A stretch of 58,162 nucleotides of DNA from Nitrospirota bacterium (GTDB lineage: Bacteria; Nitrospirota; Nitrospiria; Nitrospirales; Nitrospiraceae), in contig JAPLLI010000064.1 of the NCBI GenBank assembly GCA_026387615.1, forward strand, positions 1-58,162, written 5' to 3'. Positions 6,756-21,804 of this stretch are shown here, piece by piece. Each line of letters opens with the position of its first letter. Positions within the stretch are counted from its first letter, which is position 1. The notes under the pieces were generated by a model, which made no database searches, was not told the DNA's origin, and saw only the letters and a list, made by a program, of their open reading frames with translations. Both the position numbers and the translations under genes were made by a program.

Positions 6756-7526
6756 ATGGTCGAACGATTTGACATCTCACTAAATACCCCGGCTGGACGG
6801 CTGACTACGGCCATCGACGTGCCGACGGGACTGATCCCCATCACGGCAATTGTGCCGGTCACTCGTCGCCTGGGCGAGGAAGCCGCGCAGCTGGAAGCCC
6901 AGCAGGCCATCGAAGCAGGCCAGACCATCTCCTGCCGAATGGGCTGCGCCGCCTGCTGCCGCATGCTGGTGCCGCTCTCTCCACCAGAAGCCTTTTCGCT
7001 GCGGGACTATGTGGGACAGCTGCCGACTGACCGGCGCACCCTTCTCTTGACGCGCCTCAGCGAGACGAGGGATCGGTTGAAAGAAGCGAACCTATGGGGT
7101 CAACTCAATGGCGTGGCAGAAGCCTCCAAGCCTATACCCGACGAAGCACTGGACCCGATTAACCGGGCCTACTATGCGCTGAGAATTCCCTGTCCCTATT
7201 TAGAAAATGAGATGTGTTCGATTTACGAGGCCAGGCCTGCCGCCTGCCGTGAACTTCTGGTCACTTCTCCGGCTGAACTCTGCCAGGATCTAGTCGAAAA
7301 TCCTGTCAGGCCCCTGCCGGTCTCGATGCGCATCGGTTCCATCCTGGGGCTGGTCTGGGGAACCTTGACCAACTCTCCCCCCCGGCTCATCCCGCTCCCG
7401 ATGGCCCTGGAATGGGCCGAGCGGCATGTAGCGGCATCCCGCCAGACCTGGCCCGGCTCATCCCTCTTGGACCAGGTCCTCGACAATATGTGGCGGTTTT
7501 TGAGCCAGGCATTTCAGAAGAAGTGA
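6756..7526 (+). CDS. YkgJ-family cysteine-cluster (UPF0153) zinc/iron-binding protein
   Basis: CRMGCAACCRMLVP (CxxCxxCC) plus a distal CPYL...CSIYEARPAACRE cluster. Confidence 0.7.
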   Translation: MVERFDISLNTPAGRLTTAIDVPTGLIPITAIVPVTRRLGEEAAQLEAQQAIEAGQTISCRMGCAACCRMLVPLSPPEAFSLRDYVGQLPTDRRTLLLTRLSETRDRLKEANLWGQLNGVAEASKPIPDEALDPINRAYYALRIPCPYLENEMCSIYEARPAACRELLVTSPAELCQDLVENPVRPLPVSMRIGSILGLVWGTLTNSPPRLIPLPMALEWAERHVAASRQTWPGSSLLDQVLDNMWRFLSQAFQKK

Positions 7527-7609
7527 TGGGTGATGGGTGACCAGTGATGAGACATGCAGGATTCACTCAGTCATCTTGCTCTTATCACCCATCACCGATC
7601 ACTCATCAC
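7523..7609. repeat. Family-1 heptamer hairpin (GTGATGR arms / YCATCAC arms), empty copy
   Basis: Left arm gtgatgggtgatgggtgaccagtgatgag, right arm tcacccatcaccgatcactcatcac. The ykgJ-like stop TGA (7524-7526) lies in the first heptamer. Confidence 0.8.
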
Positions 7610-7645
7610 ATTGGCAGTGAAAATGACATCCAAGGAGAAACGCGA

Positions 7646-8263
7646 ATGCAAAAGCCCGTCATTATCTGTTTAGACTTAGAAGGCGTGTTAGTGCCGGAGA
7701 TCTGGATCAACGTCGCACTCAAGACCGGCATCGAAGAACTCAAAATTACGACCCGCGAGATGCCGGATTATGACGCCTTGATGAAGCGCCGCCTGGCCAT
7801 TTTGGATCAGCACAAGCTCACCATTCACGATATCCAGCAGGTCATCGACAAGATGGGCCCGCTGGAGGGAGCCATTAATTTTGTCGCCTGGATTCGCGAG
7901 CGCTGCCAGGTGATCATCCTGTCTGACACGTTCTATCAGTTCGCCCAACCGCTGATGCGCCAGTTGGGATTTCCGGCGCTCTTTTGCAACCAGCTGGAGA
8001 TCGATCCCACGGGCCGTATCGTCAATTACCACATGCGGATGCAGAACCAGAAAAAACATTCGGTGGCGGCACTTAAGTCCCTCAATTTTCACATCCTGGC
8101 AGCAGGCGATGCCTACAACGACACAGCCATGTTGGGCGAAGCCCATGCGGGATTCTTCTTCTGTCCGCCGGATCACCTCCCCAAGGAGTTCCCGCAGTTT
8201 CCTGTGACGAAAACCTACGGGGAGCTGCAAGCGCGATTCGCAGAGGCGGGAGGGCTTACATAG
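7646..8263 (+). CDS. thrH: ThrH-type phosphoserine phosphatase / homoserine phosphotransferase (HAD family)
   Basis: Near-colinear resemblance to Pseudomonas ThrH as I remember it (CLDLEGVLVPEIWI, ILSDTFYQFAQPLMRQLGFP, AAGDAYNDTAMLGEAHAGFFF). Start set at ATG 7646, preceded by AAGGAGA; the upstream ORF extension is repeat-encoded. Confidence 0.85.
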   Translation: MQKPVIICLDLEGVLVPEIWINVALKTGIEELKITTREMPDYDALMKRRLAILDQHKLTIHDIQQVIDKMGPLEGAINFVAWIRERCQVIILSDTFYQFAQPLMRQLGFPALFCNQLEIDPTGRIVNYHMRMQNQKKHSVAALKSLNFHILAAGDAYNDTAMLGEAHAGFFFCPPDHLPKEFPQFPVTKTYGELQARFAEAGGLT

Positions 8264-8794
8264 CTATCAGCCCTCAGCGATCAGCTCCTCAAAAACTTCC
8301 TCCCCTTTGTAAGGGGAGGCTAGGAGGGGTAGAGAATCGTAACGCCAGGGAGATAGAGGCTCATGCCCAGAGCCACAAAGGGACAGGCAAGCTATCTCAA
8401 TCTTAAACGCCGACTTCGCTCTAACATGACCGGGCCGGAAACTCGACTATGGTTCCGGCTGAGAGCGAGACAATTTCAAGGACTCAAGTTTCGTCGACAA
8501 CATGGCATCGGACCATACATTGTAGACTTCTATTGCCCCGAACAGTCTCTCGTCATTGAAGTAGACGGCGACAGTCATGCCGGAGCCGAGCAGATCGTAC
8601 AGGACAGAGAACGAGAGAAGTATCTTCAGTCTCGCGGTCTTCGCGTGATTCGATACATCAACGACGATGTTGTAAAAAATCTGGACGGGGTTCTGGAAGA
8701 TTTATCCGCGAAGGTATCGTCAGGATCGACCTCCCCTAGCCCCTCCTTACGAAGGAGGGGTGAAAAAGCTGAAAGCTGATGGCTGATCGCTATC
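8262..8794. mobile_element. DUF559 gene bracketed by two concentric imperfect inverted repeats (candidate hairpin-borne cassette)
   Basis: Outer arms 8262-8287 and 8767-8794 match 21/25 as reverse complements by hand alignment. Inner arms 8301-8330 and 8729-8760 match 23/30. The cargo is visibly lower in G+C than the flanks. Confidence 0.45.
8363..8779 (+). CDS. DUF559 endonuclease-domain protein (Vsr/restriction-endonuclease-like fold)
   Basis: ETRLWFRLRARQFQGLKFRRQHGIGPYIVDFYCPEQSLVIEVDGDSH is the DUF559 signature. The last ~16 codons are encoded by the right repeat arm. Confidence 0.85.
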   Translation: MPRATKGQASYLNLKRRLRSNMTGPETRLWFRLRARQFQGLKFRRQHGIGPYIVDFYCPEQSLVIEVDGDSHAGAEQIVQDREREKYLQSRGLRVIRYINDDVVKNLDGVLEDLSAKVSSGSTSPSPSLRRRGEKAES

Positions 8795-10652
8795 TATCCC
8801 CATTCACCACTGCCAGCACCCGCCGACCGTACCGATCCGCCTTCAGCTCGCCGATGCCTGGAACTTCCAACAGGGCAGAGGGAGTCGCAGGCCTGTGGCT
8901 GGCAATGGCCTTCAAGGTCTTGTCGTGAAAGATCACGAAGGGCGCCACGTCCTCTTCCTCAGCCAGCTCCTTGCGAAGTTGGCGCAACCGCTCGAAGAGC
9001 TCCTGATCCTCCGGCGATGTTCGCAGAGCAGCCCCAGGCAGGGCCCTCTCGCGAGACGGCTTCTGTGCCGGCACATCCAACTGGCGCTCCTCCACAGCCT
9101 TCAGCGTGACGGCGGTGCCACTTTTCAGGACCTCCTGTCCTTTGCTCGTCACATCGATGGTGGGATATTCCGCCCCTTCAACCTGAAGATAGCCTGAGTC
9201 GATCAGGCCCTTCACGAGACCGGTCACGGATGGCTTCGAGAAGGCGCGACAGATTCCGTAGTTGGGGCAGCCGTCCCCGCCAAAGGCCAACAGAGCTTTC
9301 GAACGGCTTCCGCGAAGAATCTCGACGATGCGACTCACACCGAACCGTCCCCCGCACCAGGACACCGTCTCCAAAATGGCCTTCGCGGAACGAGCCTCAT
9401 CCAAACTGGTTTCCCTGCTCACCTGCTTCGATGGGGAAACACAACGATCGCAGAGGCCGCAAGGGCCCAGGGCCTTCTCCCCTTCATCACTGAAATAGTC
9501 AAGGATCGCGAGCTGACGACAGGTCGAGACCGTCACATAGCTCATCATTTCTTGAAGCAACGTTCTCATTCTCGCTGCTCGTTCTAAGCCTTCGGGATCT
9601 TTTCCTGCCAGCTGCATGAAATATTCCTGCGTAGCCAAGTCCCGCTCATGGAACAACAGGACGCAAGCGGCTGGCTGTCCGTCGCGGCCCGCCCGCCCGA
9701 CCTCTTGATAATAGGCCTCCAGACTTCCCGGGATGTCGAAATGGACGACTAGCCGGACGTCCGACTTGTCGATGCCCATGCCGAAAGCATTAGTCGCAGC
9801 CAGAATCCTCACAGTCCCCCGGCGAAATTCCTGGTGCACGAGCTGGCGCTCCTCATCGGAGAGACCGGCGTGGTAGTAGCCGACCGACTGGTGAGCATGG
9901 CCCAGCCAATCCGCTACCTCTTCGACCGCCCGCCGCGTGGCGCAATAGATCAGAATCGTGCCCTTCTCCCTCTCACGCACCAGCCGTTCCAAAATGGCTA
10001 GTTTCTCCTGGCGTGACTGACAGGGACGGACGGACAGGGCCAGATTGGGCCGACGGAAGCCTGAAACCAGCCGGAATGGATCGCGGAGCGACAGACGTTT
10101 GCAGAGATCAATTTGAACGCGGGCCGTGGCAGTGGCAGTCAGGGCGAGACAGGGAGGGTTCGTGAGCTCCTGCCGGAGCCTGCCGATCTTGAGATAGTCC
10201 GGCCTGAAGTCATGGCCCCATTGCGAAATACAATGGGCTTCGTCCACCACCAGCAACGAGACCCAGAGGCTGCGTAACAGCTCAAGAAACCCCTCATGCT
10301 GCATCCGTTCCGGCGCCAGGTAGAGCAACTGCAGCCGCTTCTGATGAAGGTCCTGAATCACTCGATACTTCTCAGATCCGGTCAGGCCTGAGTGAAAGGC
10401 CGCAGCGCTGATGTTGCGCTGCTTCAAACTGGCCACCTGATCTTGCATCAAGGCAATCAGGGGGGAAATGACCAGGGTCAGCCCTGGGAGTATTGTCGCA
10501 GGCAATTGATAACACAGGGATTTTCCCTGCCCTGTCGGCATGACGGTCATGGCGTCTCGCCCAGCCAGGACCGCGCGAATGACCTCCTCCTGACCAGGCC
10601 GAAAGGTCGCGAAGCCGAACCGTTCGCTCAGCTGTGTAGTCAGATCATCCAC
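8790..10652 (-). CDS. recQ: ATP-dependent DNA helicase RecQ
   Basis: FGFATFRPGQEEVI, MPTGQGKSLCYQLPA and DEAHCISQWGHDFRPDY motifs, a Zn-binding Cys cluster, and a C-terminal HRDC-like region. Confidence 0.95.
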   Translation of the reverse strand: MDDLTTQLSERFGFATFRPGQEEVIRAVLAGRDAMTVMPTGQGKSLCYQLPATILPGLTLVISPLIALMQDQVASLKQRNISAAAFHSGLTGSEKYRVIQDLHQKRLQLLYLAPERMQHEGFLELLRSLWVSLLVVDEAHCISQWGHDFRPDYLKIGRLRQELTNPPCLALTATATARVQIDLCKRLSLRDPFRLVSGFRRPNLALSVRPCQSRQEKLAILERLVREREKGTILIYCATRRAVEEVADWLGHAHQSVGYYHAGLSDEERQLVHQEFRRGTVRILAATNAFGMGIDKSDVRLVVHFDIPGSLEAYYQEVGRAGRDGQPAACVLLFHERDLATQEYFMQLAGKDPEGLERAARMRTLLQEMMSYVTVSTCRQLAILDYFSDEGEKALGPCGLCDRCVSPSKQVSRETSLDEARSAKAILETVSWCGGRFGVSRIVEILRGSRSKALLAFGGDGCPNYGICRAFSKPSVTGLVKGLIDSGYLQVEGAEYPTIDVTSKGQEVLKSGTAVTLKAVEERQLDVPAQKPSRERALPGAALRTSPEDQELFERLRQLRKELAEEEDVAPFVIFHDKTLKAIASHRPATPSALLEVPGIGELKADRYGRRVLAVVNGDR

Positions 10653-10775
10653 GTTAAATTAGTGAGAGTGAAGGGTGGTGTTGAAACGTGATTTTCCGCG
10701 CACAAAGTATAAATGACTGGCTAAGCATCGGCAACCAAGCCATCGTGTTGGCTGACAGCCAATATGCATAAAGCC

Positions 10776-10820
10776 AAAAAGAAACCCCGCTGGGGATCTC
10801 CCAGCGGGGTTTCTTTCTTC
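10776..10820 (-). terminator. Intrinsic terminator, probably bidirectional, downstream of the porin gene
   Basis: Perfect 14-bp stem gaaaccccgctggg / cccagcggggtttc (10781-10794 / 10800-10813) with a 5-nt loop. It is flanked by an A-run and a T-rich run. Confidence 0.65.
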
Positions 10821-10870
10821 GCAGAAACGAGAGGTCTTCTCGTCTCTAGCTTATATGTCTTGTCTTCTTC

Positions 10871-12538
10871 TTAGAAGTTCATCCAAAGCTGGGCATAGGC
10901 CCAATCTTGGCCACGGCTGGTACCCAGGTTCTCCTGGATGTAACCACCGGCATAGAGGTGACCATAGCTCGTCTGGAAGGCCAACTTGCCATCCATGAAC
11001 ATATGGGTCCAGGAGATGTCCAATTCGTCACCGATGTGCGTCTTCTGATTGCCGACCTTCGAGAAGACATAGGCCCCCTGGCTGCCACGGTACCAGTTGT
11101 CTTCCTTGTTGGCCAGGTTCAAGCTGGTGGCCCAGATTTCGAAATGGTCATCCTTGGAAGGACGGAACTGGAAGTTGATCGAGGGGCTCATCATGTTCTT
11201 CCAAGCCTGGACATCCATATAACCCATGTGGATGTGGTTGGTCGGGAACAAGTTTTCAAACGTGTTGGCTGATTTGCAATTTCCAACAGACTGATTTCCC
11301 GAGGCGCTGGTGTTACATTGCGCACGACCATCGCCCGAGGCATAGTCTAAATTGACGGCCAAACGCGGCTTCCAGGCAGATTGATAATGGGTATAGCCAA
11401 TCCAGTTTCTGGTCGCCCAAGCATTGATATGGAGCATGCGCTGATCTGCGTTTTGGCTAGCAACGCCATTCTGATCCAATGCATCGCCCATCTGACCGAA
11501 CTGGTAGACCAATTCATTCGTCGCATCGAAATTGCCCTTGCGCATTTCGATCCTGTTACCAACTGTGTGACGGAGCTGATTCGAATGCTTTGCCGTTCCG
11601 ATACCGCCGGCATTATTGGTCTGCGTGTTCATTCTGTTGCTATACATGATGTAGTAGGGCTCGATCAGGAAGCCAGGCACAGACTTGATCTGGTTGTAGA
11701 AAATGAACATATCAGCATCGTTGTTGCCCATACCGGTGTTAGTCCCAACCGCATTGACCTGAACGCTGCCAGTGGCTGAACCCTGCGCCATGTCCGACTC
11801 CGCAGTGCGGAACCAGCCGAGGTAGGTATCGAAGGACTTGGTGCTGTAGTTCAACATGATACCGTCATGGGAGAATCCCGTATTGGCCCAATCGAAGTGG
11901 CCGAACAAAGAATGGTTGCCGAACACAATGTATTGACGGCCGGCCTTCACGCTCAAGCCCTGCACGCCGCCGAAGTTCCGCACCAACATGTAGGCTGCGC
12001 GCACACCCACGGTGCCGTGGTTCAAGGCTGGATCATTGGCGCCCGTTGACCCAGGGGTCCCGTTGGTGCCCCAGGTGGACGAGTTGATGAGCTCCATGTA
12101 GAAGTTCACGTCCGGCGACACATCGTAACCGATGCCCAAACGGGTCATCTGTTGCGTGAACATGTCGTTTGACTGTCCCTTAGTTCCGTTACCACCAGCG
12201 ACTCCACTGCCCTTGGTGTTACAAGACGTTCCACCTGCGACCATCACGCTGCCGAAGCAGGTGTTGTTCCGCATTTCCGGACGGACGCGCAAATCCGCGC
12301 GGAGCCAGAAATTCTTCAGATCGAAGTTCTTGCCGATTTTCGGATCGTAGAGTTCGTAGGCTTCCTTCTGCGGAATCGCGCGAGGAATGGCCGGCACGTT
12401 GGTGATTCTCTCACCTTCCGGCAACTCAAACGCCGCTTGAGCCGGGGCTGCCACGAATGACATGCCTGCCGTCATGACGGCTGCACTGAAGAAGGTAGCC
12501 AGACCGGCCCACCCTTTTCGTCCTTGGATACTTTGCAT
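10871..12538 (-). CDS. Outer-membrane porin-like beta-barrel protein
   Basis: Signal peptide ending AQA/AF, long Gly/Asn/Tyr-rich strand pattern, C-terminal ...AQLWMNF. Start trimmed to ATG 12538, which has GGAGGA upstream. Confidence 0.65.
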   Translation of the reverse strand: MQSIQGRKGWAGLATFFSAAVMTAGMSFVAAPAQAAFELPEGERITNVPAIPRAIPQKEAYELYDPKIGKNFDLKNFWLRADLRVRPEMRNNTCFGSVMVAGGTSCNTKGSGVAGGNGTKGQSNDMFTQQMTRLGIGYDVSPDVNFYMELINSSTWGTNGTPGSTGANDPALNHGTVGVRAAYMLVRNFGGVQGLSVKAGRQYIVFGNHSLFGHFDWANTGFSHDGIMLNYSTKSFDTYLGWFRTAESDMAQGSATGSVQVNAVGTNTGMGNNDADMFIFYNQIKSVPGFLIEPYYIMYSNRMNTQTNNAGGIGTAKHSNQLRHTVGNRIEMRKGNFDATNELVYQFGQMGDALDQNGVASQNADQRMLHINAWATRNWIGYTHYQSAWKPRLAVNLDYASGDGRAQCNTSASGNQSVGNCKSANTFENLFPTNHIHMGYMDVQAWKNMMSPSINFQFRPSKDDHFEIWATSLNLANKEDNWYRGSQGAYVFSKVGNQKTHIGDELDISWTHMFMDGKLAFQTSYGHLYAGGYIQENLGTSRGQDWAYAQLWMNF

Positions 12539-12827
12539 AACGTTCCTCCTGTGAATTGGATAACAGCCGCCACCGGTGCACGTTCCGGCGCTGCGCTGCC
12601 GACTTGACATCCAAACTGCCTGCACGATCATTGACTGATTATTTTTCTTACCTGCTCTAACTTGCGAAACCGTTGTGCCCACGGCTTCCTGCCCGCCACC
12701 AACATACATTAATCTTCGCTAATCTGCCTGAACCCACTTCCCATTACAAGCTTTTTCTGATTTCCACCAAACAACTTGCAGGCCCAGAACTTGCCCTGCC
12801 AGTCTGTCTACTTTTTCACCCACCGTC

Positions 12828-13127
12828 TCAGGCCTGGCCAGACTGATTCGTCAAACCGGAACCCTGCTCCACTTTCTGCCCAGCAGAGTTGATCTGCTCC
12901 TCTGCATCTTTAATCGAGGCTTGAAAGTCCTGCTCGACCATCTTCACTTCCTGCTGGATCATATTGAGTTCCGGCTCCACCGACTTCCGTAAGTCTTCTG
13001 CCGTTTCCTTGAACCCCTTGACCGCTTTTCCGACCTGGCGACCGACTTCAGGCAACTGCTTGGGACCGAACAACAAAAAGGCAATCACCAGAATAATGAG
13101 AATTTCGCCGGCGCCCAATCCAAACAT
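12828..13127 (-). CDS. Twin-arginine translocase TatA/TatB-family subunit (TatB-like)
   Basis: MFGLGAGEILIILVIAFLLFGPKQLPEVGRQVGKAVKGFK: TM helix, hinge Gly-Pro and an amphipathic helix. Confidence 0.75.
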   Translation of the reverse strand: MFGLGAGEILIILVIAFLLFGPKQLPEVGRQVGKAVKGFKETAEDLRKSVEPELNMIQQEVKMVEQDFQASIKDAEEQINSAGQKVEQGSGLTNQSGQA

Positions 13128-13136
13128 CGTGTAATC

Positions 13137-13218
13137 CAGTGATGCGTGATCGGTAAAGGGTAATCAGTGATCGCTTCCGAAGGCCTTCTCTCATCACGCA
13201 TCACCCATCACGACTCAC
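13137..13218. repeat. Family-1 heptamer hairpin, empty copy, between the two tat genes
   Basis: Left arm cagtgatgcgtgatcgg...taatcagtgatcg, right arm ctcatcacgcatcacccatcacgactcac. Confidence 0.75.
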
Positions 13219-13225
13219 TACGCTT

Positions 13226-13498
13226 CTAAACTTGCTTGACCTGCTGCGCTGATTCAACCGGGGCCGCGGACGGCTGAGCTGCCTGCACTTGCGTGACCTG
13301 AATCGGCTGCGCGTCCGGCGCATCAGACGGAGGAGGCGTCACGTCAATGGCGTCAGCTTCGTGAATGCTCTTCTTGAATCCCTTGATGGCTTTCCCGAGC
13401 CCCTCGCCCAACTGCGGAATCTTGCCTGCGCCGAAAATGATCAACACAATGACCAGAATCAGCACCAACTCCATCCATCCGAATGATCCAAACATCAA
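13226..13498 (-). CDS. tatA: Twin-arginine translocase subunit TatA
   Basis: FGWMELVLILVIVLIIFGAGKIPQLGEGLGKAIKGFKK is the canonical TatA N-terminus. Confidence 0.85.
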   Translation of the reverse strand: MMFGSFGWMELVLILVIVLIIFGAGKIPQLGEGLGKAIKGFKKSIHEADAIDVTPPPSDAPDAQPIQVTQVQAAQPSAAPVESAQQVKQV

Positions 13499-13702
13499 GG
13501 CCTCGCGATACGTGTTACGTAATTATGCACTCAATAGAAATGCGCCCGAGGCGCGCGCGCTTCACATCTGACTGCGGTGTCGAGGATACGCCCACTCGAA
13601 TACAAAGCATGCGGCATTCCTCAAACGCGCTGAAGGCTATAGAATCCCCAAGGATTAGTCAAGTAGAAATTCGTAGACTGGGCCGTTTGGCCCTAGCAAG
13701 AA

Positions 13703-15199
13703 TCAGCGAGCCCCCACGAAAGCATGAAAGTAATCGACCGGACTCGGTGGCGCGGTCAGGGCAATCATGAACGACTGGGGATCATAGCCGATATCTTCCA
13801 AATCCTTCGAGGCCAGCATCAACTCTTCCTCCGTGAGATACGCAACCGTGTCGGGAATGCCTGTCGGCTTCAACGATCGGACCAGAGCCTGAAGCGTTTC
13901 ACGTTCCTCCGGCGGCATCTCTAACGAAATCGGAAAGTCCAGATGGCGCGCATAGGGACTTCTGTAGGTTTCATTCAAGGCCTGGAGGGTCTTGAGCATC
14001 AAACGATCCTGTTCCCAGGGCGCCATTCTCGTACCGGCAGAGGGGTGGGTGGCCATGAGATCCATCAACGTCAGAACATTAGTCCCTAAGCTGCGCCCCA
14101 CGAATTCCCGCTGGCTCTCCAGGACCATCGGACCGGCCTCCAACTGCTTGGCCACCGCTTCGGCCAGCGCGAAGTTGACCATGACACTCTGCTGGCCGCC
14201 GAATTGGCAATAGCAGGGCTTCTCCGGGTCGTTCAACACAGCCATATCCGCGGTGCCCGCGTCGAAACTGCTGAACCCGATCGCATCCGGGGCCAACAGG
14301 CGCTTGGCTTCCTTGATCGTGGCATAGGCTCCCATATTCACAGGAACCACCACCTGCTCATCGATACGCTTGAGGAACTCCGTGATCGTCTTCCGGTAGG
14401 GAACCTCTTTCCATTCGACCGTCCGATATTCACGCTCCCACACCAGATCGTCGAGGAAGGGCGGAAAGCCCTTGAGTGTCTCCACGTCCATGGCGTCGAA
14501 CGCCCGGACAAAGGTCGCCCAGTCTGAAATTTTCGCATGCAGCGCTTCGCTCAAATTCGGCCGCAGGAACTCTTCTTCAATCTCGTTCGCCTGGCGGGAC
14601 ATCAGCTTCGTCGGGAGATCATTCCACAGTTCGTTGCAAATGATGCGATCCACGCTGCCATCCGCGACACCTTCGAGCCGGTCCACCGTCCCTCGATGGG
14701 TCTGGATCCGGTCGCGGTGGGACGCGAGTTCCGGGTGGGCCATGGCTGCATCGAGCACCGACTGTTCCCAATCCACCAGCACATAACGAATGCGGGGATA
14801 GATCGTCCCCTCTTTATCGAGGACTTTGAGATGACTCAGAAAACAGGCAGCAAGGTTCCCGTTGCCGGGGCCGAGCTCCATGACGGTAAGAGGGGGTAGG
14901 GGGATAGACGGGGTATCGGTGGAACCGGATTCTACCTTACCCCCTTGTCCCGTTACCCCTTTACCCCGAGCCTTCTCACGCTTCACGACTTTTTCGAAAT
15001 AGTCCGCCGCGAGAGCATGGGCCAGCCGATAATCGGCTGAAGCAAAGGTCTGGTAGAAGCTGCGAATCTGATCGCCCCGGAAGCGATAGAAGAGCGTATT
15101 GATGTGGACTTGCCACTGATCGACCGGCTTATAGTCGCCGATAAGCTGAGGTAAGGCGTCTGCGTCCTGCAACATACATACATCCAGACTAGGGGCCAA
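13703..15199 (-). CDS. MidA/NDUFAF7-like (DUF185) SAM-dependent methyltransferase
   Basis: Motif I VMELGPGNGNLAACFL and IICNELWNDLPTK resemble MidA-family motifs. The protein contains a repeat-encoded insert just before motif I. Confidence 0.6.
   Translation of the reverse strand: MAPSLDVCMLQDADALPQLIGDYKPVDQWQVHINTLFYRFRGDQIRSFYQTFASADYRLAHALAADYFEKVVKREKARGKGVTGQGGKVESGSTDTPSIPLPPLTVMELGPGNGNLAACFLSHLKVLDKEGTIYPRIRYVLVDWEQSVLDAAMAHPELASHRDRIQTHRGTVDRLEGVADGSVDRIICNELWNDLPTKLMSRQANEIEEEFLRPNLSEALHAKISDWATFVRAFDAMDVETLKGFPPFLDDLVWEREYRTVEWKEVPYRKTITEFLKRIDEQVVVPVNMGAYATIKEAKRLLAPDAIGFSSFDAGTADMAVLNDPEKPCYCQFGGQQSVMVNFALAEAVAKQLEAGPMVLESQREFVGRSLGTNVLTLMDLMATHPSAGTRMAPWEQDRLMLKTLQALNETYRSPYARHLDFPISLEMPPEERETLQALVRSLKPTGIPDTVAYLTEEELMLASKDLEDIGYDPQSFMIALTAPPSPVDYFHAFVGAR
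14885..14968. repeat. Family-5 (GGGGTAG / CTACCCC-type) imperfect hairpin lying in-frame inside the methyltransferase CDS
   Basis: ggtaagagggggtagggggatagacggggtatcggtgg ... ccggattctaccttacccccttgtcccgttacccctttaccccg. It translates as ...GKGVTGQGGKVESGSTDTPSIPLPPLT... Confidence 0.65.
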
Positions 15200-15306
15200 C
15201 GAGACGTACGAGAGGGACGAGACTTGTGCCGCCCTTTTCGCTTCCTATCTTTGAGCGCGCGGATTCTAGCAGATGGCGGGAAACAGCCGCAACGGGCTTC
15301 CCTCAT

Positions 15307-15405
15307 AGCTATCAGCCGTCAGCTTTCAGCTCTCAGCTTTGAATCAGAGCAAGTTCACTCGAAAATCTTTCCTGGCTGAGGGCTGATCGCTGATAGCTGA
15401 CGGCT
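15307..15405. repeat. Family-2 heptamer hairpin (AGCNNTC arms), empty copy
   Basis: Left arm agctatcagccgtcagctttcagctctcagc, right arm gctgagggctgatcgctgatagctgacggct. The first 11 nt (agctatcagcc) are identical to the outer left arm of the DUF559 locus. Confidence 0.8.
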
Positions 15406-15452
15406 CCCCCAAGCTCCTTGACAGCTCCCATCGACCGGTGTACCAAAGGGCT

Positions 15453-16028
15453 ATGGCGAAAGGCGCGAGACGAGCGGGACGAGGGGCAATCGTAACGGCC
15501 ATGATCCTGGCCCTCTCGGCGCTGCCGAGACTCCAGGCGGCGGAGCTGCCGATCACCAAGAATCCCCCGATCCCGGATTTTCAGAACCGTCCCCAAGACG
15601 TCACGCCCTACGATTTCGACGCCCCCCCGCAAGGCCTGTTCCTTACGATTACAACAGCGGAGGGGTTCGACGAAGAACTGGGCTTTCGCCGGACGCACGA
15701 AATTGTGCCAGTGAGACCGACCGACCGATTCCTCCCTGACACCCCGACCATCTTCATCGTCTTTCACCTCCACCAGCATTATCAGGGCTTCCAGGTATTC
15801 GGACGGCTCTTCCCTGAAACGGTACCGGGCCGCGACTCCGCTCTCCTGATCGGACAAGACGCCATGCACATTGCGCTGGAAGACGAAAGCGGCTATCTCA
15901 CCCTCTCCCCTCCCCAGGGCTCATGGAAACCAGGCCGATATAAAGTGGAAATTCACGTGGGAGAAGAGGTCAACGAGATGAGTCTGATGGGCACGATGCG
16001 ATTTACGATCGCCGAGGCGGGGAAGTGA
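15453..16028 (+). CDS. Hypothetical secreted protein
   Basis: ATG 15453 gives MAKGARRAGRGAIVTAMILALSALPRLQA/AE, a signal-peptide-like start. No recognisable domain. The stop TGA lies in the first heptamer of the next hairpin. Confidence 0.5.
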   Translation: MAKGARRAGRGAIVTAMILALSALPRLQAAELPITKNPPIPDFQNRPQDVTPYDFDAPPQGLFLTITTAEGFDEELGFRRTHEIVPVRPTDRFLPDTPTIFIVFHLHQHYQGFQVFGRLFPETVPGRDSALLIGQDAMHIALEDESGYLTLSPPQGSWKPGRYKVEIHVGEEVNEMSLMGTMRFTIAEAGK

Positions 16029-16104
16029 CGGGTGATCGGTGATGAGTGATGAGAAAAGACTGAACCCCTCTCAATCACTGTTCACTGCTCACCCATCACT
16101 GATC
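16025..16104. repeat. Family-1 heptamer hairpin, empty copy
   Basis: Left arm gtgacgggtgatcggtgatgagtgatgag, right arm ctcaatcactgttcactgctcacccatcactgatc. Confidence 0.8.
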
Positions 16105-16114
16105 CCTGCTCCGT

Positions 16115-16143
16115 TTGACGCTCTCTCCATCATTCTGTAGAAT
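16115..16143 (+). promoter_or_regulatory. Sigma70-type promoter for the GT2-LAB_N-ArnT operon
   Basis: TTGACG (16115-16120), a 17-nt spacer, then TAGAAT (16138-16143) preceded by TG (extended -10). It lies about 50 nt upstream of ATG 16194. Confidence 0.55.
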
Positions 16144-16193
16144 GCCCACGTGATTCGCTGGTTCCCCTTCTGCGTCAGGAATATCGACCCTTC

Positions 16194-16928
16194 ATGACCG
16201 TGTCATCCCATCCATGGGCCTCCGTCATCGTCCCGATCAAGGATGAGCGAGACAATCTCGTTCCCTTGACTGAGCAATTACTCAAGGCCCTGGAGGCCTG
16301 CGACGAATCACGCTCGGCTCCCTTCGAAATCCTCTTCATCGACGACGGCAGCACGGATGGCAGTTCGGACCTGCTCGATCGGCTTGCTGCAGACTATCCG
16401 TTGGTACGGGTCCTCCATTTCGACCGGAATTACGGACAGTCCTCGGCTTTCGACGCGGGGTTCAAACAGGCGACCGGCGATTTGATCATCACCATCGACG
16501 GGGACCTCCAAAACGACCCGGCCGACATCGGCACGTTGCTGCCCTACACAAAGACCTTTGATCTCGTCTGTGGATGGCGCACCAACCGGCACGACAGCCT
16601 CGTCCGGACATTGTCCTCGAAAATTGCCAACGCAGTACGAAGCGCCGTGACGGGCGATCAGGTGCATGATACCGGCTGCTCGCTGAAGATCTTCCGCCGG
16701 GCCGTGGTAGACAAACTGCAACTCTTCAACGGCATGCATCGATTTTTCCCGGCCCTGGCGCTGATGCATGGCTTTACGGTCACCGAAGTGCCGGTGCGCC
16801 ATTACGCTCGCAAGCACGGCCAGTCGAAATACGGCCTCGGCAACCGCCTCTTCAAAAGCCTGTACGACCTCATCGCCGTCCGTTGGATGCAGGGACGGGT
16901 ACTGCGATATAAATTCAGAGACAAGTGA
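16194..16928 (+). CDS. GT2 polyprenyl-phosphate glycosyltransferase (ArnC / Dpm1-like)
   Basis: SVIVPIKDE, FIDDGSTDGS, ITIDGDLQNDP and a short C-terminus typical of polyprenol-phosphate sugar synthases. Confidence 0.85.
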   Translation: MTVSSHPWASVIVPIKDERDNLVPLTEQLLKALEACDESRSAPFEILFIDDGSTDGSSDLLDRLAADYPLVRVLHFDRNYGQSSAFDAGFKQATGDLIITIDGDLQNDPADIGTLLPYTKTFDLVCGWRTNRHDSLVRTLSSKIANAVRSAVTGDQVHDTGCSLKIFRRAVVDKLQLFNGMHRFFPALALMHGFTVTEVPVRHYARKHGQSKYGLGNRLFKSLYDLIAVRWMQGRVLRYKFRDK

Positions 16929-17340
16929 TGAGTAATCGGTGATGGGTGATCAGTGGGCGGACCGTACGCACACACAAAGATCTCGAGGTTTGGAAGAGGG
17001 CTATGGATTTGGCTTCACATACATATTCGCTTACGCTGCAGTTTCCCAAAGAAGAACTCTACGGGTTAACCTCGCAGGTCAGACGCTCCGCCGTTTCGAT
17101 ACCAAGTAATATCGCGGAAGGCGCGGCCAGACATTCCAGAAAAGAATTTATCCAGTTTCTTCACATCGCTTCGGGGTCGGTTGCTGAACTCGAGACGCAA
17201 CTTCTTTTGGCCATACGACTAGGGTTCATTTCTGGTGACAGCGTGATGTCCCATATTGAGGAAGTCAGAAAATTGCTCCTTGGCCTACTCCGTTCGCTGA
17301 AAAAGAAACCCATCACTCATCACTCACCACCCATCACCAC
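16925..17340. mobile_element. Family-1 hairpin split by about 350 nt that encodes a four-helix-bundle protein (candidate cargo-bearing form of the repeat)
   Basis: Left arm 16925-16955 gtgatgagtaatcggtgatgggtgatcagtg; right arm 17309-17340 cccatcactcatcactcaccacccatcaccac. The interior is visibly lower in G+C. Confidence 0.45.
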
Positions 17341-17350
17341 ACCATTATGA
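16946..17350 (+). CDS. Four-helix-bundle protein (23S rRNA intervening-sequence protein family, TIGR02436-like)
   Basis: DLEVWKRAMDL...YGLTSQVRRSAVSIPSNIAEGAARHS.KEFIQFLHIASGSVAELETQL is the family signature. The only in-frame start (GTG 16946) lies inside the left repeat arm. Confidence 0.85.
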   Translation: MISGRTVRTHKDLEVWKRAMDLASHTYSLTLQFPKEELYGLTSQVRRSAVSIPSNIAEGAARHSRKEFIQFLHIASGSVAELETQLLLAIRLGFISGDSVMSHIEEVRKLLLGLLRSLKKKPITHHSPPITTPL

Positions 17351-17634
17351 GCATCGAACATATCTGGCTCGCCATCGGATTCCTCGGCCAAGGGCTGTTC
17401 TTCGGCCGCTGGGTCATCCAATGGATTGCCTCTGAGCGAAAGGCCGAGAGCCAGGTCCCGGTCGCCTTTTGGTACATGAGTTTGATCGGCGGACTCATCA
17501 CCCTGGCCTATGCGATCTATCGCAAAGACCCGGTCTTCATCGCGGGCCAGAGCATCGGATCCATCGTCTATATTCGCAACCTGACCCTGATTGCTCGGGC
17601 AACCCAAGCCGGCCCGGTGAAAGGTGATCGGTGA
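17347..17634 (+). CDS. Lipid-A-disaccharide synthase N-terminal domain (LAB_N) small membrane protein
   Basis: WLAIGFLGQGLFFGRWVIQWIASERKAES.VPVAFWYMSLIGG..LAYAIYRKDPVFI pattern. ATGA overlap with the preceding ORF. Confidence 0.75.
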   Translation: MSIEHIWLAIGFLGQGLFFGRWVIQWIASERKAESQVPVAFWYMSLIGGLITLAYAIYRKDPVFIAGQSIGSIVYIRNLTLIARATQAGPVKGDR

Positions 17635-17706
17635 TGGGTGACCTGCATGATCCAACTCCCGGCCCCTTACCTGTGACGCATCACCCATCATTCATCACAC
17701 GTCACC
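17616..17706. repeat. Family-1 heptamer hairpin spanning the LAB_N stop and the ArnT-like start
   Basis: Left arm ggtgaaaggtgatcggtgatgggtgacc, right arm gtgacgcatcacccatcattcatcacacgtcacc. Confidence 0.8.
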
Positions 17707-19439
17707 TGCCTCTCCTCGCGCTCCTGGCTCTATCGGGGCTGCTGTTCTTTCTGGGGCTCGGCGACATGGGCTTGACCGACCGTGACGAGGGGAGAAACGC
17801 CGAAGCAGGACGGGAAATGTTCGAATCGGGGGATCGCCTGACGCCGACGTTCAACGGCGAGCTGCGCGTGGCAAAGCCGGTCTTTCTCTATTGGTTGATG
17901 GATCGGTCCTATCGCCTGTTCGGCGTCAACGAATTCGCCGCACGATTCCCCTCGGCCCTCTTCGGGGTCGGCTTGATCCTGCTCCATTACCTGTTTCTTG
18001 CACACCAGCGGGACCGAACCATCGCCATCTTCGGCTCCTTGATGCTCCTGCTCAACCTGGAAATCCTCGGGCTCGGTCGCATGGCGCTGACCGACAGTGT
18101 CCTGATTTTCTTCACCACGGCAGCCCTCTATGGGTTCTGGCTGGGACTGCATGGTGAAGGGGCCATGCGCCGATGGATCTGGGCCTTCTACATCGGCATG
18201 GCCCTCGCCACCCTGACGAAGGGACCGGTCGGGTTCGCCATCCCCCTCATCGTCGCGGCGATCTACCTGACCTGGACCAGCCGGTGGCGGAACTATTGGC
18301 AACAGGGCGCCCCCCTTGCCGGCATGGCCCTGTTCCTCCTGCTGGCCGCCCCCTGGTATGGCGCCATGTTTTATATCCACGGTGACGCCTATGCCTCCGG
18401 CGCCAAGGCCAATACGATCGGACGATTCCTCAGTCCGATGGAAGGCCACCACGGGACCATCTTCTTCTATCTCCCGGTCCTGCTCATCGGCTTCTTTCCC
18501 TGGAGCGCGCTCCTTCCTGTTCCGCTCTATCGCACGCTCAGGGACTGGCGTCGCGACAAGGAAATATCCCGCTATCCCGCTACCCCGCTACCCCACTCTG
18601 ATACCCCCTACCTCTCTACCCCGGCTCGAGAACTCGACCTCTTTGCCGCACTGTGGGTCGTTGGCGTTTTTGTATTTTTCACGGCCTCCTCGACGCGCCT
18701 GCCCCACTATATCGGGCCCCTGTTTCCCGCCGCCGCCCTCTTGACCGCCTCCTACTGGTCCCGCTGCTTGCAAGACCCGGCCACGAAAGGGATTCGCGGC
18801 TCCATTCACCTCATGACGGGGCTGGGCTATCTCTTGGCCATCGGCTTCGCCTGCCTCCCCACGCTCTACGCCAACTACGCGACCAAGATGGTGAAAGAGT
18901 TCCCCCTGGCAGGACAAGTGGGAGTCGGCATCGCTCCCTATCTGGCGACCGCCGTGCTGTTACTGGGAATGGCGCTTGTGGGCTATCTTGGATTGAACGA
19001 GGAACGGCGCGGAGGCGCCTTTTGGGCAGCGGGAGCCACCTTGGCCGGTCTGGTCCTGATCGTCATCGTGATCGCGACGCCCCATATCAACCGCTATGTG
19101 ATCGCGCCCCCGCAAGAGCTCGCTTATGCAGCAGGACTGAACTTGGAGCCCCAGGATCAGTTCATCGCCTATGGGGTAACGAGACCCTCCTCCGTTTTTT
19201 ACGCGAAACGCAAAACGCTCTTTGTGCCATTTGGGGAAGAGGACAAGATACGAGCGGCACTGAAGGAGCCGAGAAGAGTGATGATCTTGCTGCCGGAAAG
19301 CGCACAGGCGAAGTTGCCGGAGGAAGCAGTCGGGCTGGTTCCCCTGCTCAAACGCTATGGGTACATGCTGCTGGCCAATCAGCCCATGGTGACGATCCCG
19401 GGAAATGCCCCGAAGCCGCCCACCATTTTCGGCCACTAG
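17631..19439 (+). CDS. ArnT/PMT-like (GT39/GT83) polyprenyl-phosphate-sugar-dependent glycosyltransferase
   Basis: Multi-TM protein with DRDEGRNAEAGREM and RVAKPVFLYWLM loop-1 motifs typical of the ArnT/PMT_2 family. The first ~25 codons are repeat-encoded. Confidence 0.85.
   Translation: MMGDLHDPTPGPLPVTHHPSFITRHLPLLALLALSGLLFFLGLGDMGLTDRDEGRNAEAGREMFESGDRLTPTFNGELRVAKPVFLYWLMDRSYRLFGVNEFAARFPSALFGVGLILLHYLFLAHQRDRTIAIFGSLMLLLNLEILGLGRMALTDSVLIFFTTAALYGFWLGLHGEGAMRRWIWAFYIGMALATLTKGPVGFAIPLIVAAIYLTWTSRWRNYWQQGAPLAGMALFLLLAAPWYGAMFYIHGDAYASGAKANTIGRFLSPMEGHHGTIFFYLPVLLIGFFPWSALLPVPLYRTLRDWRRDKEISRYPATPLPHSDTPYLSTPARELDLFAALWVVGVFVFFTASSTRLPHYIGPLFPAAALLTASYWSRCLQDPATKGIRGSIHLMTGLGYLLAIGFACLPTLYANYATKMVKEFPLAGQVGVGIAPYLATAVLLLGMALVGYLGLNEERRGGAFWAAGATLAGLVLIVIVIATPHINRYVIAPPQELAYAAGLNLEPQDQFIAYGVTRPSSVFYAKRKTLFVPFGEEDKIRAALKEPRRVMILLPESAQAKLPEEAVGLVPLLKRYGYMLLANQPMVTIPGNAPKPPTIFGH
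18564..18623. repeat. TAYCCC(G)C-type short tandem tract, in-frame inside the ArnT-like CDS
   Basis: atatcccgctatcccgctaccccgctaccccactctgatacccctacctctctaccccgg, translated as EISRYPATPLPHSDTPYLSTP. It resembles the family-5 arm. Confidence 0.55.
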
Positions 19440-19454
19440 CAGAATAGCCGCGGG

Positions 19455-19520
19455 GAGGTTCGAGGTTCGAGGTTTTCGGAACTTCGAACCATGAACTTCG
19501 AACCATGAACTTCGAACCTC
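19455..19520. repeat. Family-3 heptamer hairpin (GAGGTTC / GAACYWY arms) between convergent genes
   Basis: gaggttcgaggttcgaggttttcg followed by gaacttcgaaccatgaacttcgaaccatgaacttcgaacctc. Confidence 0.8.
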
Positions 19521-19531
19521 TGGCGTCACGC

Positions 19532-20647
19532 CTACATCGGCACAAGACCCTTCAAAAGATAACTCGCCACCAACACTAACAACACCGCCGCGACAAACAA
19601 ACCCTCCGCCACGACAGTCCGTCCCCCTACGGGAGTATCTGCCATGGGCAAGTCCTGACCATGGAGCCCCTCCAGCCAATGGGCCACTGAAACGAACAGC
19701 ACCGCCGTCATGACAAACAGAGAGCCGGTCGTCATCCCTAGGCCCAGTCCCATGAGCGAGCGAGTCAGAGACCCGGATAACCAGGCTGGCCGCCATGAGG
19801 ATCGCATCGTCCACACAACATGGCCGACTAGTCCCGCCAGGGTAAGCACCCCGCCGCCGCACACAAACGATTGCGCAATCCAGCCATTCGACGGAAGCTG
19901 CGCGATCGTCCAGACGAACGCCAGCGTCACCACGAAAAATGGCACGATCCGGCAAACGGCGGTCCTGGCCGCAGCGCGCCATTCGCGCCAGGGATGGATA
20001 CCAATCATGCCCATGACGCAACCGAGCGCCGCCCCTCCTGCCACGTCGGTCGGATAATGAGACCCGCGAAACACCCGACTGGCGGCAATGGCCATTGCCA
20101 CAGAGAACAACAGCCATCTCGCTCGTGGAAACTTTGCAGCGAGCACTGTGGCCACCGCGAACGATGCGGCCGCATGACCGGACGGAAACGAGTCCCACCC
20201 GCTCCCGCTGACAGGAGAGAATTCGAAGTTGTCCGTATCCATGAACTTGGGGCGGGGACGGCCAATCGTATGTTTTAAAATCGTCGCGACCACCGCCACG
20301 AGACCGTGCGCCATGAGACTCTGCCTGCCTGCGTCTTTCCACTGCTGGCGTTTCAATCCATACCCGACCGCCAGCAACAGAAGACTCAGGATCACCAGCG
20401 ACTCCCCCTTGCCGAGGCGGTCACCGAGATCGCTGAACAGAACCAGCCAGGGGTTGGGGACAGAACCGACCGGCAGATAGAGGGAACGAACAAACCTGGC
20501 CAGAGGCAGGTCCCACTCAAACAGGCCCACGAACACGAGGAGGAGGGCGACGCACGAAAAAACAAGCGGCGCGTGACGAGTGATCAGTGACGGGTGATGA
20601 GCGGTCGAGACAGGATCTCGATCGTGGCTATGCTCATCACTCATCAC
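19532..20647 (-). CDS. PAP2-family membrane phosphatase (lipid phosphate phosphatase, LpxE/F- or UppP-like role possible)
   Basis: KHTIGRPRP, PSGHAAASFA and SRVFRGSHYPTDV are the three PAP2 motifs. It has a long multi-TM C-terminal extension. The GTG start and first ~25 codons are repeat-encoded. Confidence 0.8.
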   Translation of the reverse strand: MMSDEHSHDRDPVSTAHHPSLITRHAPLVFSCVALLLVFVGLFEWDLPLARFVRSLYLPVGSVPNPWLVLFSDLGDRLGKGESLVILSLLLLAVGYGLKRQQWKDAGRQSLMAHGLVAVVATILKHTIGRPRPKFMDTDNFEFSPVSGSGWDSFPSGHAAASFAVATVLAAKFPRARWLLFSVAMAIAASRVFRGSHYPTDVAGGAALGCVMGMIGIHPWREWRAAARTAVCRIVPFFVVTLAFVWTIAQLPSNGWIAQSFVCGGGVLTLAGLVGHVVWTMRSSWRPAWLSGSLTRSLMGLGLGMTTGSLFVMTAVLFVSVAHWLEGLHGQDLPMADTPVGGRTVVAEGLFVAAVLLVLVASYLLKGLVPM

Positions 20648-20663
20648 TGATCACCCTTCACTG
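20573..20663. repeat. Family-1 heptamer hairpin overlapping the PAP2 start
   Basis: Left arm gtgacgagtgatcagtgacgggtgatgag, right arm gctcatcactcatcactgatcacccttcactg. Confidence 0.8.
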
Positions 20664-20676
20664 TTTCAGCATCCGG

Positions 20677-21804
20677 CTAGGGCACCCAGTCGGCGAGAAA
20701 CACGTTGAACTCACCGGGCGACTTCGCATGGCGATCCGACACCCAGACCAGGCTCGCGCCATCAGGCGAGAACATGGGGAAACTATTAAATTGTCCGTCG
20801 AAGGTAAGTCGTTCGAGGCCTTGGCCGTCCTCACCGATCGCGTACAAGTGAAAACTGGGCTTGCCCCCCTCACCTTTCGTCTCAAGGTTCGAGGAGAACA
20901 TGATTCGCTTGCCATCGTGAAAATAGAACGGCGAGAAATTCGACGCGCCGTTCGACGTCACCTGTCGCTTGCCGCTGCCGTCCGCATTCATCACGAAAAT
21001 TTCAAGCTGCCCCGGCTCCACCAGCTTCTGCTTGAGCAAGTCCTGGTACTTCGCGATCTCCGCCGGATCGGTCGGATGCGACGCCCGATAGACAATCTTC
21101 TTACTGTCCGGCGAAAAAAAGGCTCCGCCGTCGTAGCCGATCTCGTTCGTCAACCGCCGGGCCCTCGAGCCGTCCAGATTCATGGCATAGATATCCAGGT
21201 CCCCGTCTTTGACGGACGTCCAGACGATCGTCTTGCCGTCCGGCGACACCGTGGCTTCCGCATCGTATCCGGACGAAGACGTCAGCCGCTGCATCTCCTG
21301 CCCGTCGAGACGCACGGCATAGAGATCATAATCATCCAGAGCCCAACGATAGGCCCCCTCCCGCTTCGGCTTCGGCGGACAGTTCGGCCCGGTGGCATAG
21401 GTCGAGGAATAGAGCACGCGGCGATCCCCGGGGAAAAAGAATCCGCACGTCGTGGCACCCGTGCCGGTACTCACCAATCGAACCGTGTCGCTTTCCAGAT
21501 CCATCACGTACATCTGATAACAACCCAGCCCGTCTCCGGCCGGTGAAAGCGTGGCCGCGAAGGTATCCTTCGCCCAATTATTCGTGGACTGGAAAATCAA
21601 TTTGTTCCCGCTAAAGGAAAAATAGGCTTCGGCATTCTGCCGGCCTACCGTCAGCTGACGAATATTCTTCAGATGCCGTTCTGCCTGGTGAGCGGGAACC
21701 ACGCGAGCCTTCACAGCAGGGCTCTCCGCCTGGCTCGGCTGCTCACAGAGCAACAAACCGATCAGTCCGATCATGCACCACTTACCGAATGGGATTGCTG
21801 GCAT
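20677..21804 (-). CDS. Periplasmic PD40/WD40-like beta-propeller protein (TolB-like)
   Basis: Repeated SPDGK.IV(W/Y/F) PD40 motifs. Start trimmed to ATG 21804, which gives the signal-like MPAIPFGKWCMIGLIGLLLCEQPSQA. Confidence 0.75.
   Translation of the reverse strand: MPAIPFGKWCMIGLIGLLLCEQPSQAESPAVKARVVPAHQAERHLKNIRQLTVGRQNAEAYFSFSGNKLIFQSTNNWAKDTFAATLSPAGDGLGCYQMYVMDLESDTVRLVSTGTGATTCGFFFPGDRRVLYSSTYATGPNCPPKPKREGAYRWALDDYDLYAVRLDGQEMQRLTSSSGYDAEATVSPDGKTIVWTSVKDGDLDIYAMNLDGSRARRLTNEIGYDGGAFFSPDSKKIVYRASHPTDPAEIAKYQDLLKQKLVEPGQLEIFVMNADGSGKRQVTSNGASNFSPFYFHDGKRIMFSSNLETKGEGGKPSFHLYAIGEDGQGLERLTFDGQFNSFPMFSPDGASLVWVSDRHAKSPGEFNVFLADWVP

Follow-up and report, generated by a model that had tools for sequence, protein, structure and literature searches.

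The window analyzed here, the whole 58,162-nt stretch of contig JAPLLI010000064.1 (assembly GCA_026387615.1), belongs to a Nitrospira close to N. lenta, its family-2 glycosyltransferase (GT2) protein being 95% identical to the homologue in an N. lenta metagenome-assembled genome. The forward strand carries an Arn-like envelope-glycosylation operon in which the GT2 gene (PF00535, 16194-16928) is followed by a LAB_N gene (PF07578, 17347-17634), and the junction of these two genes is occupied by an element that consists of two inverted arrays of tandem heptamers with a single gene between them. Read on the plus strand, the left (5') arm at 16925-16955 comprises 4.4 tandem heptamers (GTGATGA GTAATCG GTGATGG GTGATCA GTG), and the right (3') arm at 17308-17340 (ACCCATC ACTCATC ACTCACC ACCCATC ACC) is complementary to it. 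In a repeat search the arms were complementary over 23 nt at 83% and over 26 nt at 77%, with 360-361 nt between them. The enclosed cargo gene (16946-17350, plus strand), recognized by profile matches, encodes a 134-aa four-helix-bundle protein of the PF05635/TIGR02436 family and is the single open reading frame (ORF) of the interior, whose G+C content is 49.4% compared with 58-61% in the neighbour genes; the corresponding values for third codon positions (GC3) are 52% and 74-75%. An initial annotation of this DNA had stated that the arms enclose only the four-helix-bundle ORF, at lower G+C, and these measurements bear it out.

The complementarity of the arms exceeded that of shuffled sequences and of random positions alike. 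The double-heptamer pattern matched 33 times in the window, compared with 2.2 matches expected and a maximum of 5 in shuffles, and 66 heptamer-periodic stems were observed, while block-shuffled controls gave none. Flank-to-flank inverted local alignment was adopted as the arm score instead of RNA duplex energy, which did not discriminate between the flanks and random flanks, values of about -50 kcal/mol being reached everywhere by long G+C-rich flanks. The element scored 13.0 in this alignment, whereas the scores of 947 random positions averaged 7.1, with the 99th percentile at 10.5, and only a fraction of 0.002 of them reached the score of the element. Furthermore, the minimum-free-energy and the centroid RNA folds of 16915-17350 each paired the left with the right arm. 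No rRNA match and no other known RNA family was found in an Rfam scan of positions 6500-21500.

Both arms overlap the coding sequences that they adjoin, much as had been read from the sequence before. The G-rich left arm holds stop codons in all three frames, among them the GT2 stop (TGA, 16926-16928), and it also contains the GTG start of the cargo gene at 16946. No other in-frame start precedes the domain; the following one, an ATG at 17003, already lies within helix 1. The right arm, in contrast, is free of stops in all frames and is translated as the cargo tail ...KPITHHSPPITTPL, so that the final ~14 codons of the cargo come from it. Just past this arm the LAB_N start (ATG, 17347) overlaps the cargo stop (TGA, 17348-17350) as ATGA. 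In occupied junctions of related genomes the cargo frame likewise continues through the right arm to the ATGA, and in empty junctions the same ATGA couples GT2 to LAB_N. Since the left arm stops the incoming frames and the right arm is read through to the ATGA, the cassette fits into the operon with little polar damage.

The cargo protein matched PF05635 with an E-value of 1.7e-38, and its TIGR02436 score was 127 bits against a cut-off of 24. The family invariants G, Q, R, S, N, A, E and G of the ...RRSxxSIxxNIAEG motif are all present in the alignment. The stand-alone PF05635 proteins of known structure, XCC0516 (PDB 2GSC, five chains; E 3.5e-27) and a BT_0352-type protein (PDB 2RLD; E 5.6e-7), are sequence homologues, and, as the Xanthomonas XCC0516 protein was described as a homopentamer of four-helix bundles, we infer the same assembly for the cargo protein. 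Avd, the accessory protein of diversity-generating retroelements, belongs to the same superfamily; this basic protein forms a pentameric barrel, has an RNA stem-loop as its ligand and activates a reverse transcriptase. The cargo protein scored only 21.7 bits on the Avd equivalog model NF033474, whose cut-off is 80, and the called neighbours (GT2, LAB_N, PMT/ArnT-like, PAP2 and methyltransferase genes) include no reverse transcriptase, the rest of the window not having been scanned for one; by its score the protein is not an Avd.

A comparison of orthologous operons, for which 80 Nitrospira loci were fetched and the GT2/LAB_N junction could be read in 78, demonstrated that the junction is usually empty, with 17-45 nt and no hairpin between the two genes. 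It is empty even in two genomes whose GT2 proteins are 95% (L002) and 90% (L006) identical to that of the window. A PF05635 gene was found in 13 junctions, every one within inverted heptamer arrays, and left and right arm were of the same repeat type in every occupied junction. Two further junctions, in L017 (163 nt) and L054 (98 nt), retain arms and, of the gene, no more than its first and/or last codons, and are internal-deletion remnants, while several others hold hairpins of 80-150 nt without a gene. The junction proteins form two clades, which are 31-46% identical to each other: clade A is flanked by GTGATGR, GTGACGR or GCGTDAT arms, and clade B by GGGGCNA or GGCRATA arms. Empty, clade-A, clade-B and remnant junctions coexist inside single host clusters (GT2 distance <12%). 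The patchy distribution over the genus needs at least two independent acquisitions, of clades A and B, and several losses.

Clade-B copies also occur at a second site, upstream of a methyltransferase gene, in L003, L011 and L034, and those of L003 and L011 are 70-73% identical to the junction copies of L061 and L067. In L044 a clade-B cassette (6732-7179) lies behind two clade-A heptamer units that are also present in L038, an arrangement suggestive of replacement or of an insertion within an older hairpin. Some copies are broken: that of N. moscoviensis (L013, 6746-7142) is frameshifted, and that of L067 (6732-7242) is interrupted by an in-frame stop and carries ~100 additional nt. Across the Nitrospira loci, arms flank 16 of 18 PF05635 genes. 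The type of repeat follows the phylogeny of the protein, which shows that gene and arms form one evolutionary unit.

The same association was found far beyond Nitrospira. A metagenome scan seeded with an Azospirillum IVS (intervening sequence) ORF gave 80 diverse loci, 76 of them with sufficient flank, and flanking inverted arms, with scores beyond the 99th percentile set by 329 control positions, were called at 62 of the 76 (82%), compared with about 1% of control positions. The period of these arms was 7 nt in 45 cases and 8 nt in 14. In a set of 46 PF05635 loci from viral contigs, arms were present at 32; no reverse-transcriptase-like ORF was found at these loci by a crude motif test, and a tblastn search against phage GenBank sequences gave no match. 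Among nine matches inspected after a tblastn search against plasmids, inverted arms accompany the copies of Nostoc punctiforme (GGGTGTR), Stanieria (CAGRAGG), Anabaena sp. 90 (GGTGACA) and Picosynechococcus. On cyanobacterial plasmids (L083, L085, L086), PF05635 genes with flanking heptamer arrays lie in cas loci, the Anabaena sp. 90 copy between cas6 and cas4 and the Picosynechococcus copy between cas10 and cmr3. Members of the family have been noted before in cas loci as well as in rRNA insertions of the Candidate Phyla Radiation, and what has been published as 'CRISPR-associated 23S_rRNA_IVP' genes may represent inserted cassettes and not functional partners of cas genes.

Over 77 elements the median arm length was 30 nt, corresponding to about 4.3 units, and the distance between them is narrowly distributed (median 394 nt, 10th-90th percentile 364-453). 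In 65 of the 77, purines predominate in the arm 5' of the ORF, and in 66 this arm has more G than C. Pairs of elements had 60% of their arm 5-mers in common at a protein identity of at least 75%, 25% at 60-75% and about 5% below 60%. Variable repeat positions paired in 71% of cases compared with 41% in unit-shifted controls, the first value being somewhat inflated by the choice of the best-scoring register.

Other copies reside in rRNA itself. The PF05635 family was first found in the loops of long helices, the intervening sequences, of 23S rRNA that are excised by RNase III. The metagenome set includes 14 copies inside 23S rRNA, all of them with inverted arms for which 7 nt is the best period, clear in 13 and weak in L111, and mostly of the CAGRRNN type. 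Likewise, the copy on Azospirillum lipoferum AZO_p2, one of the nine plasmid matches, lies inside a bacterial large-subunit rRNA gene (Rfam RF02541, 2464 bits), and its stem, CAGAGGA CGGATGA CAGAGGA CGGAGGA... with its complement, is paired at 27 of 30 positions. The IVS of Coxiella has a 28-bp stem within which RNase III cuts, at the first of two to three GACAGAT units in tandem, strains differing in the number of units, and its ORF was judged to be decaying and unexpressed.

The window cassette resembles the 23S rRNA IVSs of Leptospira and Coxiella burnetii (helix 45) in the protein family, in its size of about 430-450 nt, in the position of the ORF in the loop of a terminal stem of about 25-30 bp, in the tandem-heptamer build of that stem and in its sporadic distribution. 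It differs in that it lies between the protein-coding GT2 and LAB_N genes and not at the tip of helix 9, 25 or 45, in that its arms overlap coding ends (the upstream stop, the cargo start and the cargo tail), and in that its protein, unlike the Coxiella ORF, is under clear purifying selection. Judged by these features, the element has every sequence hallmark of an ORF-containing 23S IVS except the defining rRNA location, and it cannot be classed as a 23S IVS. The earlier suggestion of a stem-borne cassette of the kind that resides in rRNA is backed directly by the 7-nt-period arms of all 14 rRNA copies and by the GACAGAT repeats of Coxiella. We therefore interpret the element, with a probability of roughly 0.65, as an IVS-type cassette outside rRNA, in which a PF05635 gene between two inverted arrays of about four heptamers each occupies an mRNA operon junction. 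Our confidence is high as to the identity of the element and moderate to low as to the mechanism proposed below.

The cassette is not the only heptamer-bounded structure of the window. As the initial annotation had recognized, its arms are made of the same GTGATGR-type heptamers as five compact hairpins, which lie at 7523-7609 (GTGATGR; -47.7 kcal/mol as RNA), 13139-13211 (GTGATGR-type, partly decayed), 16025-16106 (GTGATGR-type, just upstream of the GT2 gene), 17624-17705 (GTGATGR, between LAB_N and an ArnT/PMT-like gene) and 20573-20661 (GTGAYGR, at the start of the PAP2 gene on the minus strand). Several of them reach into genes. An ORF at 15438-16028 has its stop inside the left arm of the 16025-16106 hairpin, and the stop of LAB_N itself falls in the 17624-17705 hairpin, whose loop and right arm (17631-17705) probably encode an N-terminal extension of the ArnT-like membrane protein (...HHPSFITRH...); the loop and right arm at 20573-20650 appear to do the same for the PAP2 membrane protein (...HHPSLITRH...). 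The 17624-17705 hairpin is missing from the closest relatives, L001 and L002, and its site is occupied in just 5 of 76 genomes. At this LAB_N/ArnT junction the window and L032 have similar loop-encoded peptides, and the loop resembles that of L032 and of L044 at the DNA level too. The loops of the five compact hairpins differ from each other, sharing being confined to the same junction across genomes. For the loop of the 16025-16106 hairpin a gene remnant was considered, and the resemblance was too weak to be claimed. A role of the hairpins as intrinsic terminators was likewise rejected, as a terminator scan called none of the heptamer hairpins (terminator-like sites in the scan numbered 14, with 12.9 expected). 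A sigma-70-like site (TTGACG-17-TAGAAT, 10/12; 16115-16143), which separates the 16025-16106 hairpin from the start of GT2, is a possible operon promoter; promoter-like sites overall are not enriched (6 compared with 5.7 expected).

Hairpins of two other repeat types are present as well. A compact hairpin of the AGCNNTC type at 15307-15405 occupies the site upstream of the methyltransferase gene at which relatives hold the clade-B cassette. A third type (GAGGTTC / GAACTTCGAACCAT) is represented at 19455-19518, between the convergent ArnT-like and PAP2 genes, by three GAGGTTC units and 2.9 copies of the perfect 14-nt unit GAACTTCGAACCAT, and no cargo-bearing relative of this repeat type was seen. 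Arms of the AGCNNTC type bound the second cargo-bearing element of the window (8260-8793, plus strand), where they lie at 8260-8286 and 8767-8793 and are complementary at 23 of 27 positions. They enclose an endonuclease-fold ORF of the DUF559 family (8363-8779; PF04480, E 6.5e-33), which has inner hairpin-containing inverted repeats of its own of about 31 nt (8300-8332 and 8727-8760). This gene, flanked by a HAD hydrolase gene and recQ, has a GC3 of 49% compared with about 70% in its neighbours. Synteny is conserved for its close homologues in other Nitrospira, which have retained arms of 1.5-5 units, the number varying even among genomes with an identical DUF559 protein; a single-sequence viral scan for DUF559 found nothing.

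All nine heptamer-hairpin elements fall within about 13 kb (7500-20700). The ~37 kb from 21000 to 58162, mostly long co-directional minus-strand operons, contain no such elements and only weak single arrays at 25419 and 45467. At the other end of the window, a 108-nt tandem repeat (5.4 copies, 76% matches) at 390-966 lies inside an ORF that probably encodes a Sel1/TPR-like repeat protein.

A number of observations weigh against the interpretation of the element as an IVS-type cassette. One of them is the age of the window copy. No recent mobility was detected, as the close homologues with examined contigs (75-82% identity) all have the order GT2-IVP-LAB_N, and the notion of a recently mobile copy was rejected on account of this synteny. 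Among syntenic orthologues dN/dS was 0.06-0.14, with dS near or beyond saturation. The synteny and the low dN/dS indicate that the protein is functional and that the cassette has long been inherited vertically in its clade. The label 'selfish' given to it initially must be qualified for a gene that is old, syntenic in all close relatives and under purifying selection. A record named Petrachloros mirabilis contains a protein 78% identical to a Nitrospira cassette protein, which could be due to contamination or horizontal transfer. The patchiness within Nitrospira, moreover, could largely reflect homologous recombination between strains and not repeated insertion. Neither a direct repeat (target-site duplication) beside the arms in the window sequence nor a recognisable recombinase with the element was found, and no gene remnant could be recognised in the loop of any of the window's five compact hairpins. 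Inverted arms are lacking in 14 of the 76 metagenomic copies, four of which have direct arrays only; the plasmid copies of Pseudanabaena, Oscillatoria and Gemmatirosa also have direct and not inverted arrays, the unit being an octamer in Gemmatirosa. Furthermore, since a DUF559 gene is enclosed by AGCNNTC arms of varying unit number, PF05635 is not the only family with heptamer arms, and the arrays change over time. At the RNA level, the fold of the whole element (16915-17350) is no more stable than shuffles (z -0.93), although both predicted folds pair the arms; the interior dominates the energy of the segment, and only the arm pairing is informative. Mismatches in the arms show no G-U versus A-C asymmetry, either in Nitrospira (6 vs 10) or in the wider non-rRNA set (61 vs 63), and therefore nothing specifically favours an RNA-level stem, but the test has little power because true rRNA IVSs show no asymmetry either (17 vs 11).

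These points invite other explanations. The hairpins might be primary, autonomous repeats similar to repetitive extragenic palindromic (REP) sequences, bacterial interspersed mosaic elements (BIMEs) or short tandemly repeated repetitive (STRR) sequences, which arise by slippage and are kept for mRNA processing, stability or translational coupling, with small selfish genes such as PF05635 and DUF559 as secondary guests that enter pre-existing hairpins or are tolerated nowhere else. We regard this as unlikely, yet as the most serious of the alternatives. Its main support is the DUF559 gene, which has its own inner inverted repeats and lies inside AGCNNTC arms; in addition, empty hairpins outnumber loaded ones in the window by 7 to 2, unit number varies with an unchanged DUF559 protein and among Coxiella strains, the clade-B cassette of L044 sits behind two clade-A units, and abundant stand-alone heptamer arrays are known from Xanthomonas, Nostoc and Beggiatoaceae. 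On the other hand, the arm repeat type tracks PF05635 phylogeny across phyla, the spacing is tightly set at ~394 nt, and 82% of family members have arms as opposed to about 1% of control positions. Moreover, the 23S rRNA copies carry their own heptamer arms into a site without any, and the remnants indicate that hairpins derive from loaded cassettes.

It is improbable, in our view, that the gene is an ordinary, domesticated operon gene whose arms form a cis-regulatory stem, for example an attenuator or a processing site that sets the expression ratio of GT2 to LAB_N/ArnT, without any mobile-element biology. The strong purifying selection, the strict synteny of all close homologues and the retained ATGA translational coupling would suit such a gene well. 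However, the gene is missing from most orthologous operons, including those of L002 and L006 with GT2 proteins 90-95% identical, and two deeply different clades are found in the same junction; pseudogenes and remnants exist, the base composition is foreign, and the same unit is found in rRNA, in cas operons, at accB-accC and in viral contigs. As for the arms being a chance or compositional product of a genome rich in GTGATG-like words, the heptamer does hold common stop and start codons and the complementarity is merely 77-83%; the excess of double-heptamer matches and of periodic stems over the controls, the p of ~0.002 for the window element and the recurrence of the pattern in more than 100 independent loci nevertheless refute this explanation. 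None of the three findings that the initial annotation had named as refuting its proposal was obtained: orthologous operons have mostly empty junctions, with 13 arm-flanked genes and two arm-flanked remnants, other family members in Nitrospira, metagenomes and viral contigs are flanked by arms as a rule, and the arms exceed the controls. We retain the IVS-type cassette as the preferred interpretation.

Comparison with known repeat families places the compact hairpins in a wider context. Free-standing heptamer arrays have been described in Xanthomonas (GGGAATC), Nostoc (STRR) and Beggiatoaceae (TAACTGA). As in the window, STRR-type repeats are intergenic 7-nt arrays of about four units at gene junctions, with many copies per genome, and they often form convergent, hairpin-capable pairs of variable copy number; they were reported as free-standing repeats, however, while the arrays of the window form the ends of a cassette with a gene and of related elements without cargo. 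In X. campestris, a four-unit GGGAATC array (622956-622983) overlaps the start of XCC0516, 6 nt after accB/bccP (XCC0517), and the survey that lists it drew no link to the PF05635 family (PMC4692102, supplement). The compact hairpins also resemble MITEs (miniature transposable elements with inverted repeats) and REP/BIME elements, being compact inverted repeats at junctions that outnumber their gene-bearing relatives and show deletion intermediates. In contrast to these, the elements of the window lack a transposase or REP-associated tyrosine transposase (RAYT) and a target-site duplication, the sole gene of the loaded copy being PF05635, which has no known transposase fold; their termini are tandem short repeats in place of unique inverted repeats, and the loops of compact copies are not conserved between sites. 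A classification as a classical MITE was therefore rejected, terminal inverted repeats being present without target-site duplication or shared interior. The earlier idea that the empty hairpins are MITE-like derivatives is supported by the deletion intermediates L017 and L054, and the five hairpins of the window may have the same origin. That hairpins serve as landing pads is suggested by the DUF559 gene in arms of another type and by the clade-B cassette of L044.

With regard to mechanism, the cassette would be co-transcribed with its operon, and the arms would pair in the operon transcript to an interrupted stem of about 25-30 bp, which RNase III might cleave by analogy with rRNA IVSs. The encoded pentamer may bind the RNA (or the DNA) of the arms, perhaps with one heptamer per subunit, a proposal made because Avd binds an RNA stem-loop and because the arms typically have ~4.3 units. 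The purine-rich arm may in addition serve as a ribosome-binding region, which would account for the consistent polarity of the arms; GGTGATC is complementary to GAUCACC near the 3' end of 16S rRNA. Compact hairpins could derive from cassettes through internal deletion, and hairpin loops could in turn act as insertion sites. The rRNA helix tips, the older hairpin of L044 and the DUF559 case hint that such loops are preferred.

A broader proposal, which we put forward only tentatively and consider less probable than not, is that PF05635 genes with inverted heptamer or octamer arrays constitute one pan-bacterial class of self-propagating, stem-bounded cassettes, of which the rRNA IVSs were the first members to be noticed. 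The pentamer would then read tandem repeats at about one unit per subunit, much as the TRAP ring reads GAG repeats, and the protein would drive or safeguard insertion into hairpin loops, be it at rRNA helix tips, in older hairpins or at operon junctions, possibly through an RNA intermediate as in the case of Avd with its reverse transcriptase. The free-standing heptamers, such as the cyanobacterial STRR, the Xanthomonas GGGAATC repeats and others, would accordingly represent decay products of cassettes or landing sites, and the reported 'CRISPR-associated' family members would simply be insertions.

The family-wide link between PF05635 and inverted heptamer or octamer arrays appears to be unreported: in a literature search that was not exhaustive, no paper was found that links PF05635/S23p generally to heptamer arrays, apart from a note on the Coxiella heptamers and unconnected surveys of repeats. 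The link joins three puzzles of about 30 years' standing, namely the role of the ORFs in rRNA IVSs, the scattering of the four-helix-bundle family, in many copies, through the genomes of Cyanobacteria, Bacteroidota, Nitrospira and others, cas operons being among its locations, and the nature of the abundant tandem heptamer repeats of bacteria. Together they become one testable object, a unit of about 450 nt with one gene and two inverted arrays, for which Nitrospira provides natural empty, loaded, replaced and decayed alleles at one defined site. For annotation, the association supplies a practical rule and cautions against treating PF05635 genes as functional partners of the operons that host them.

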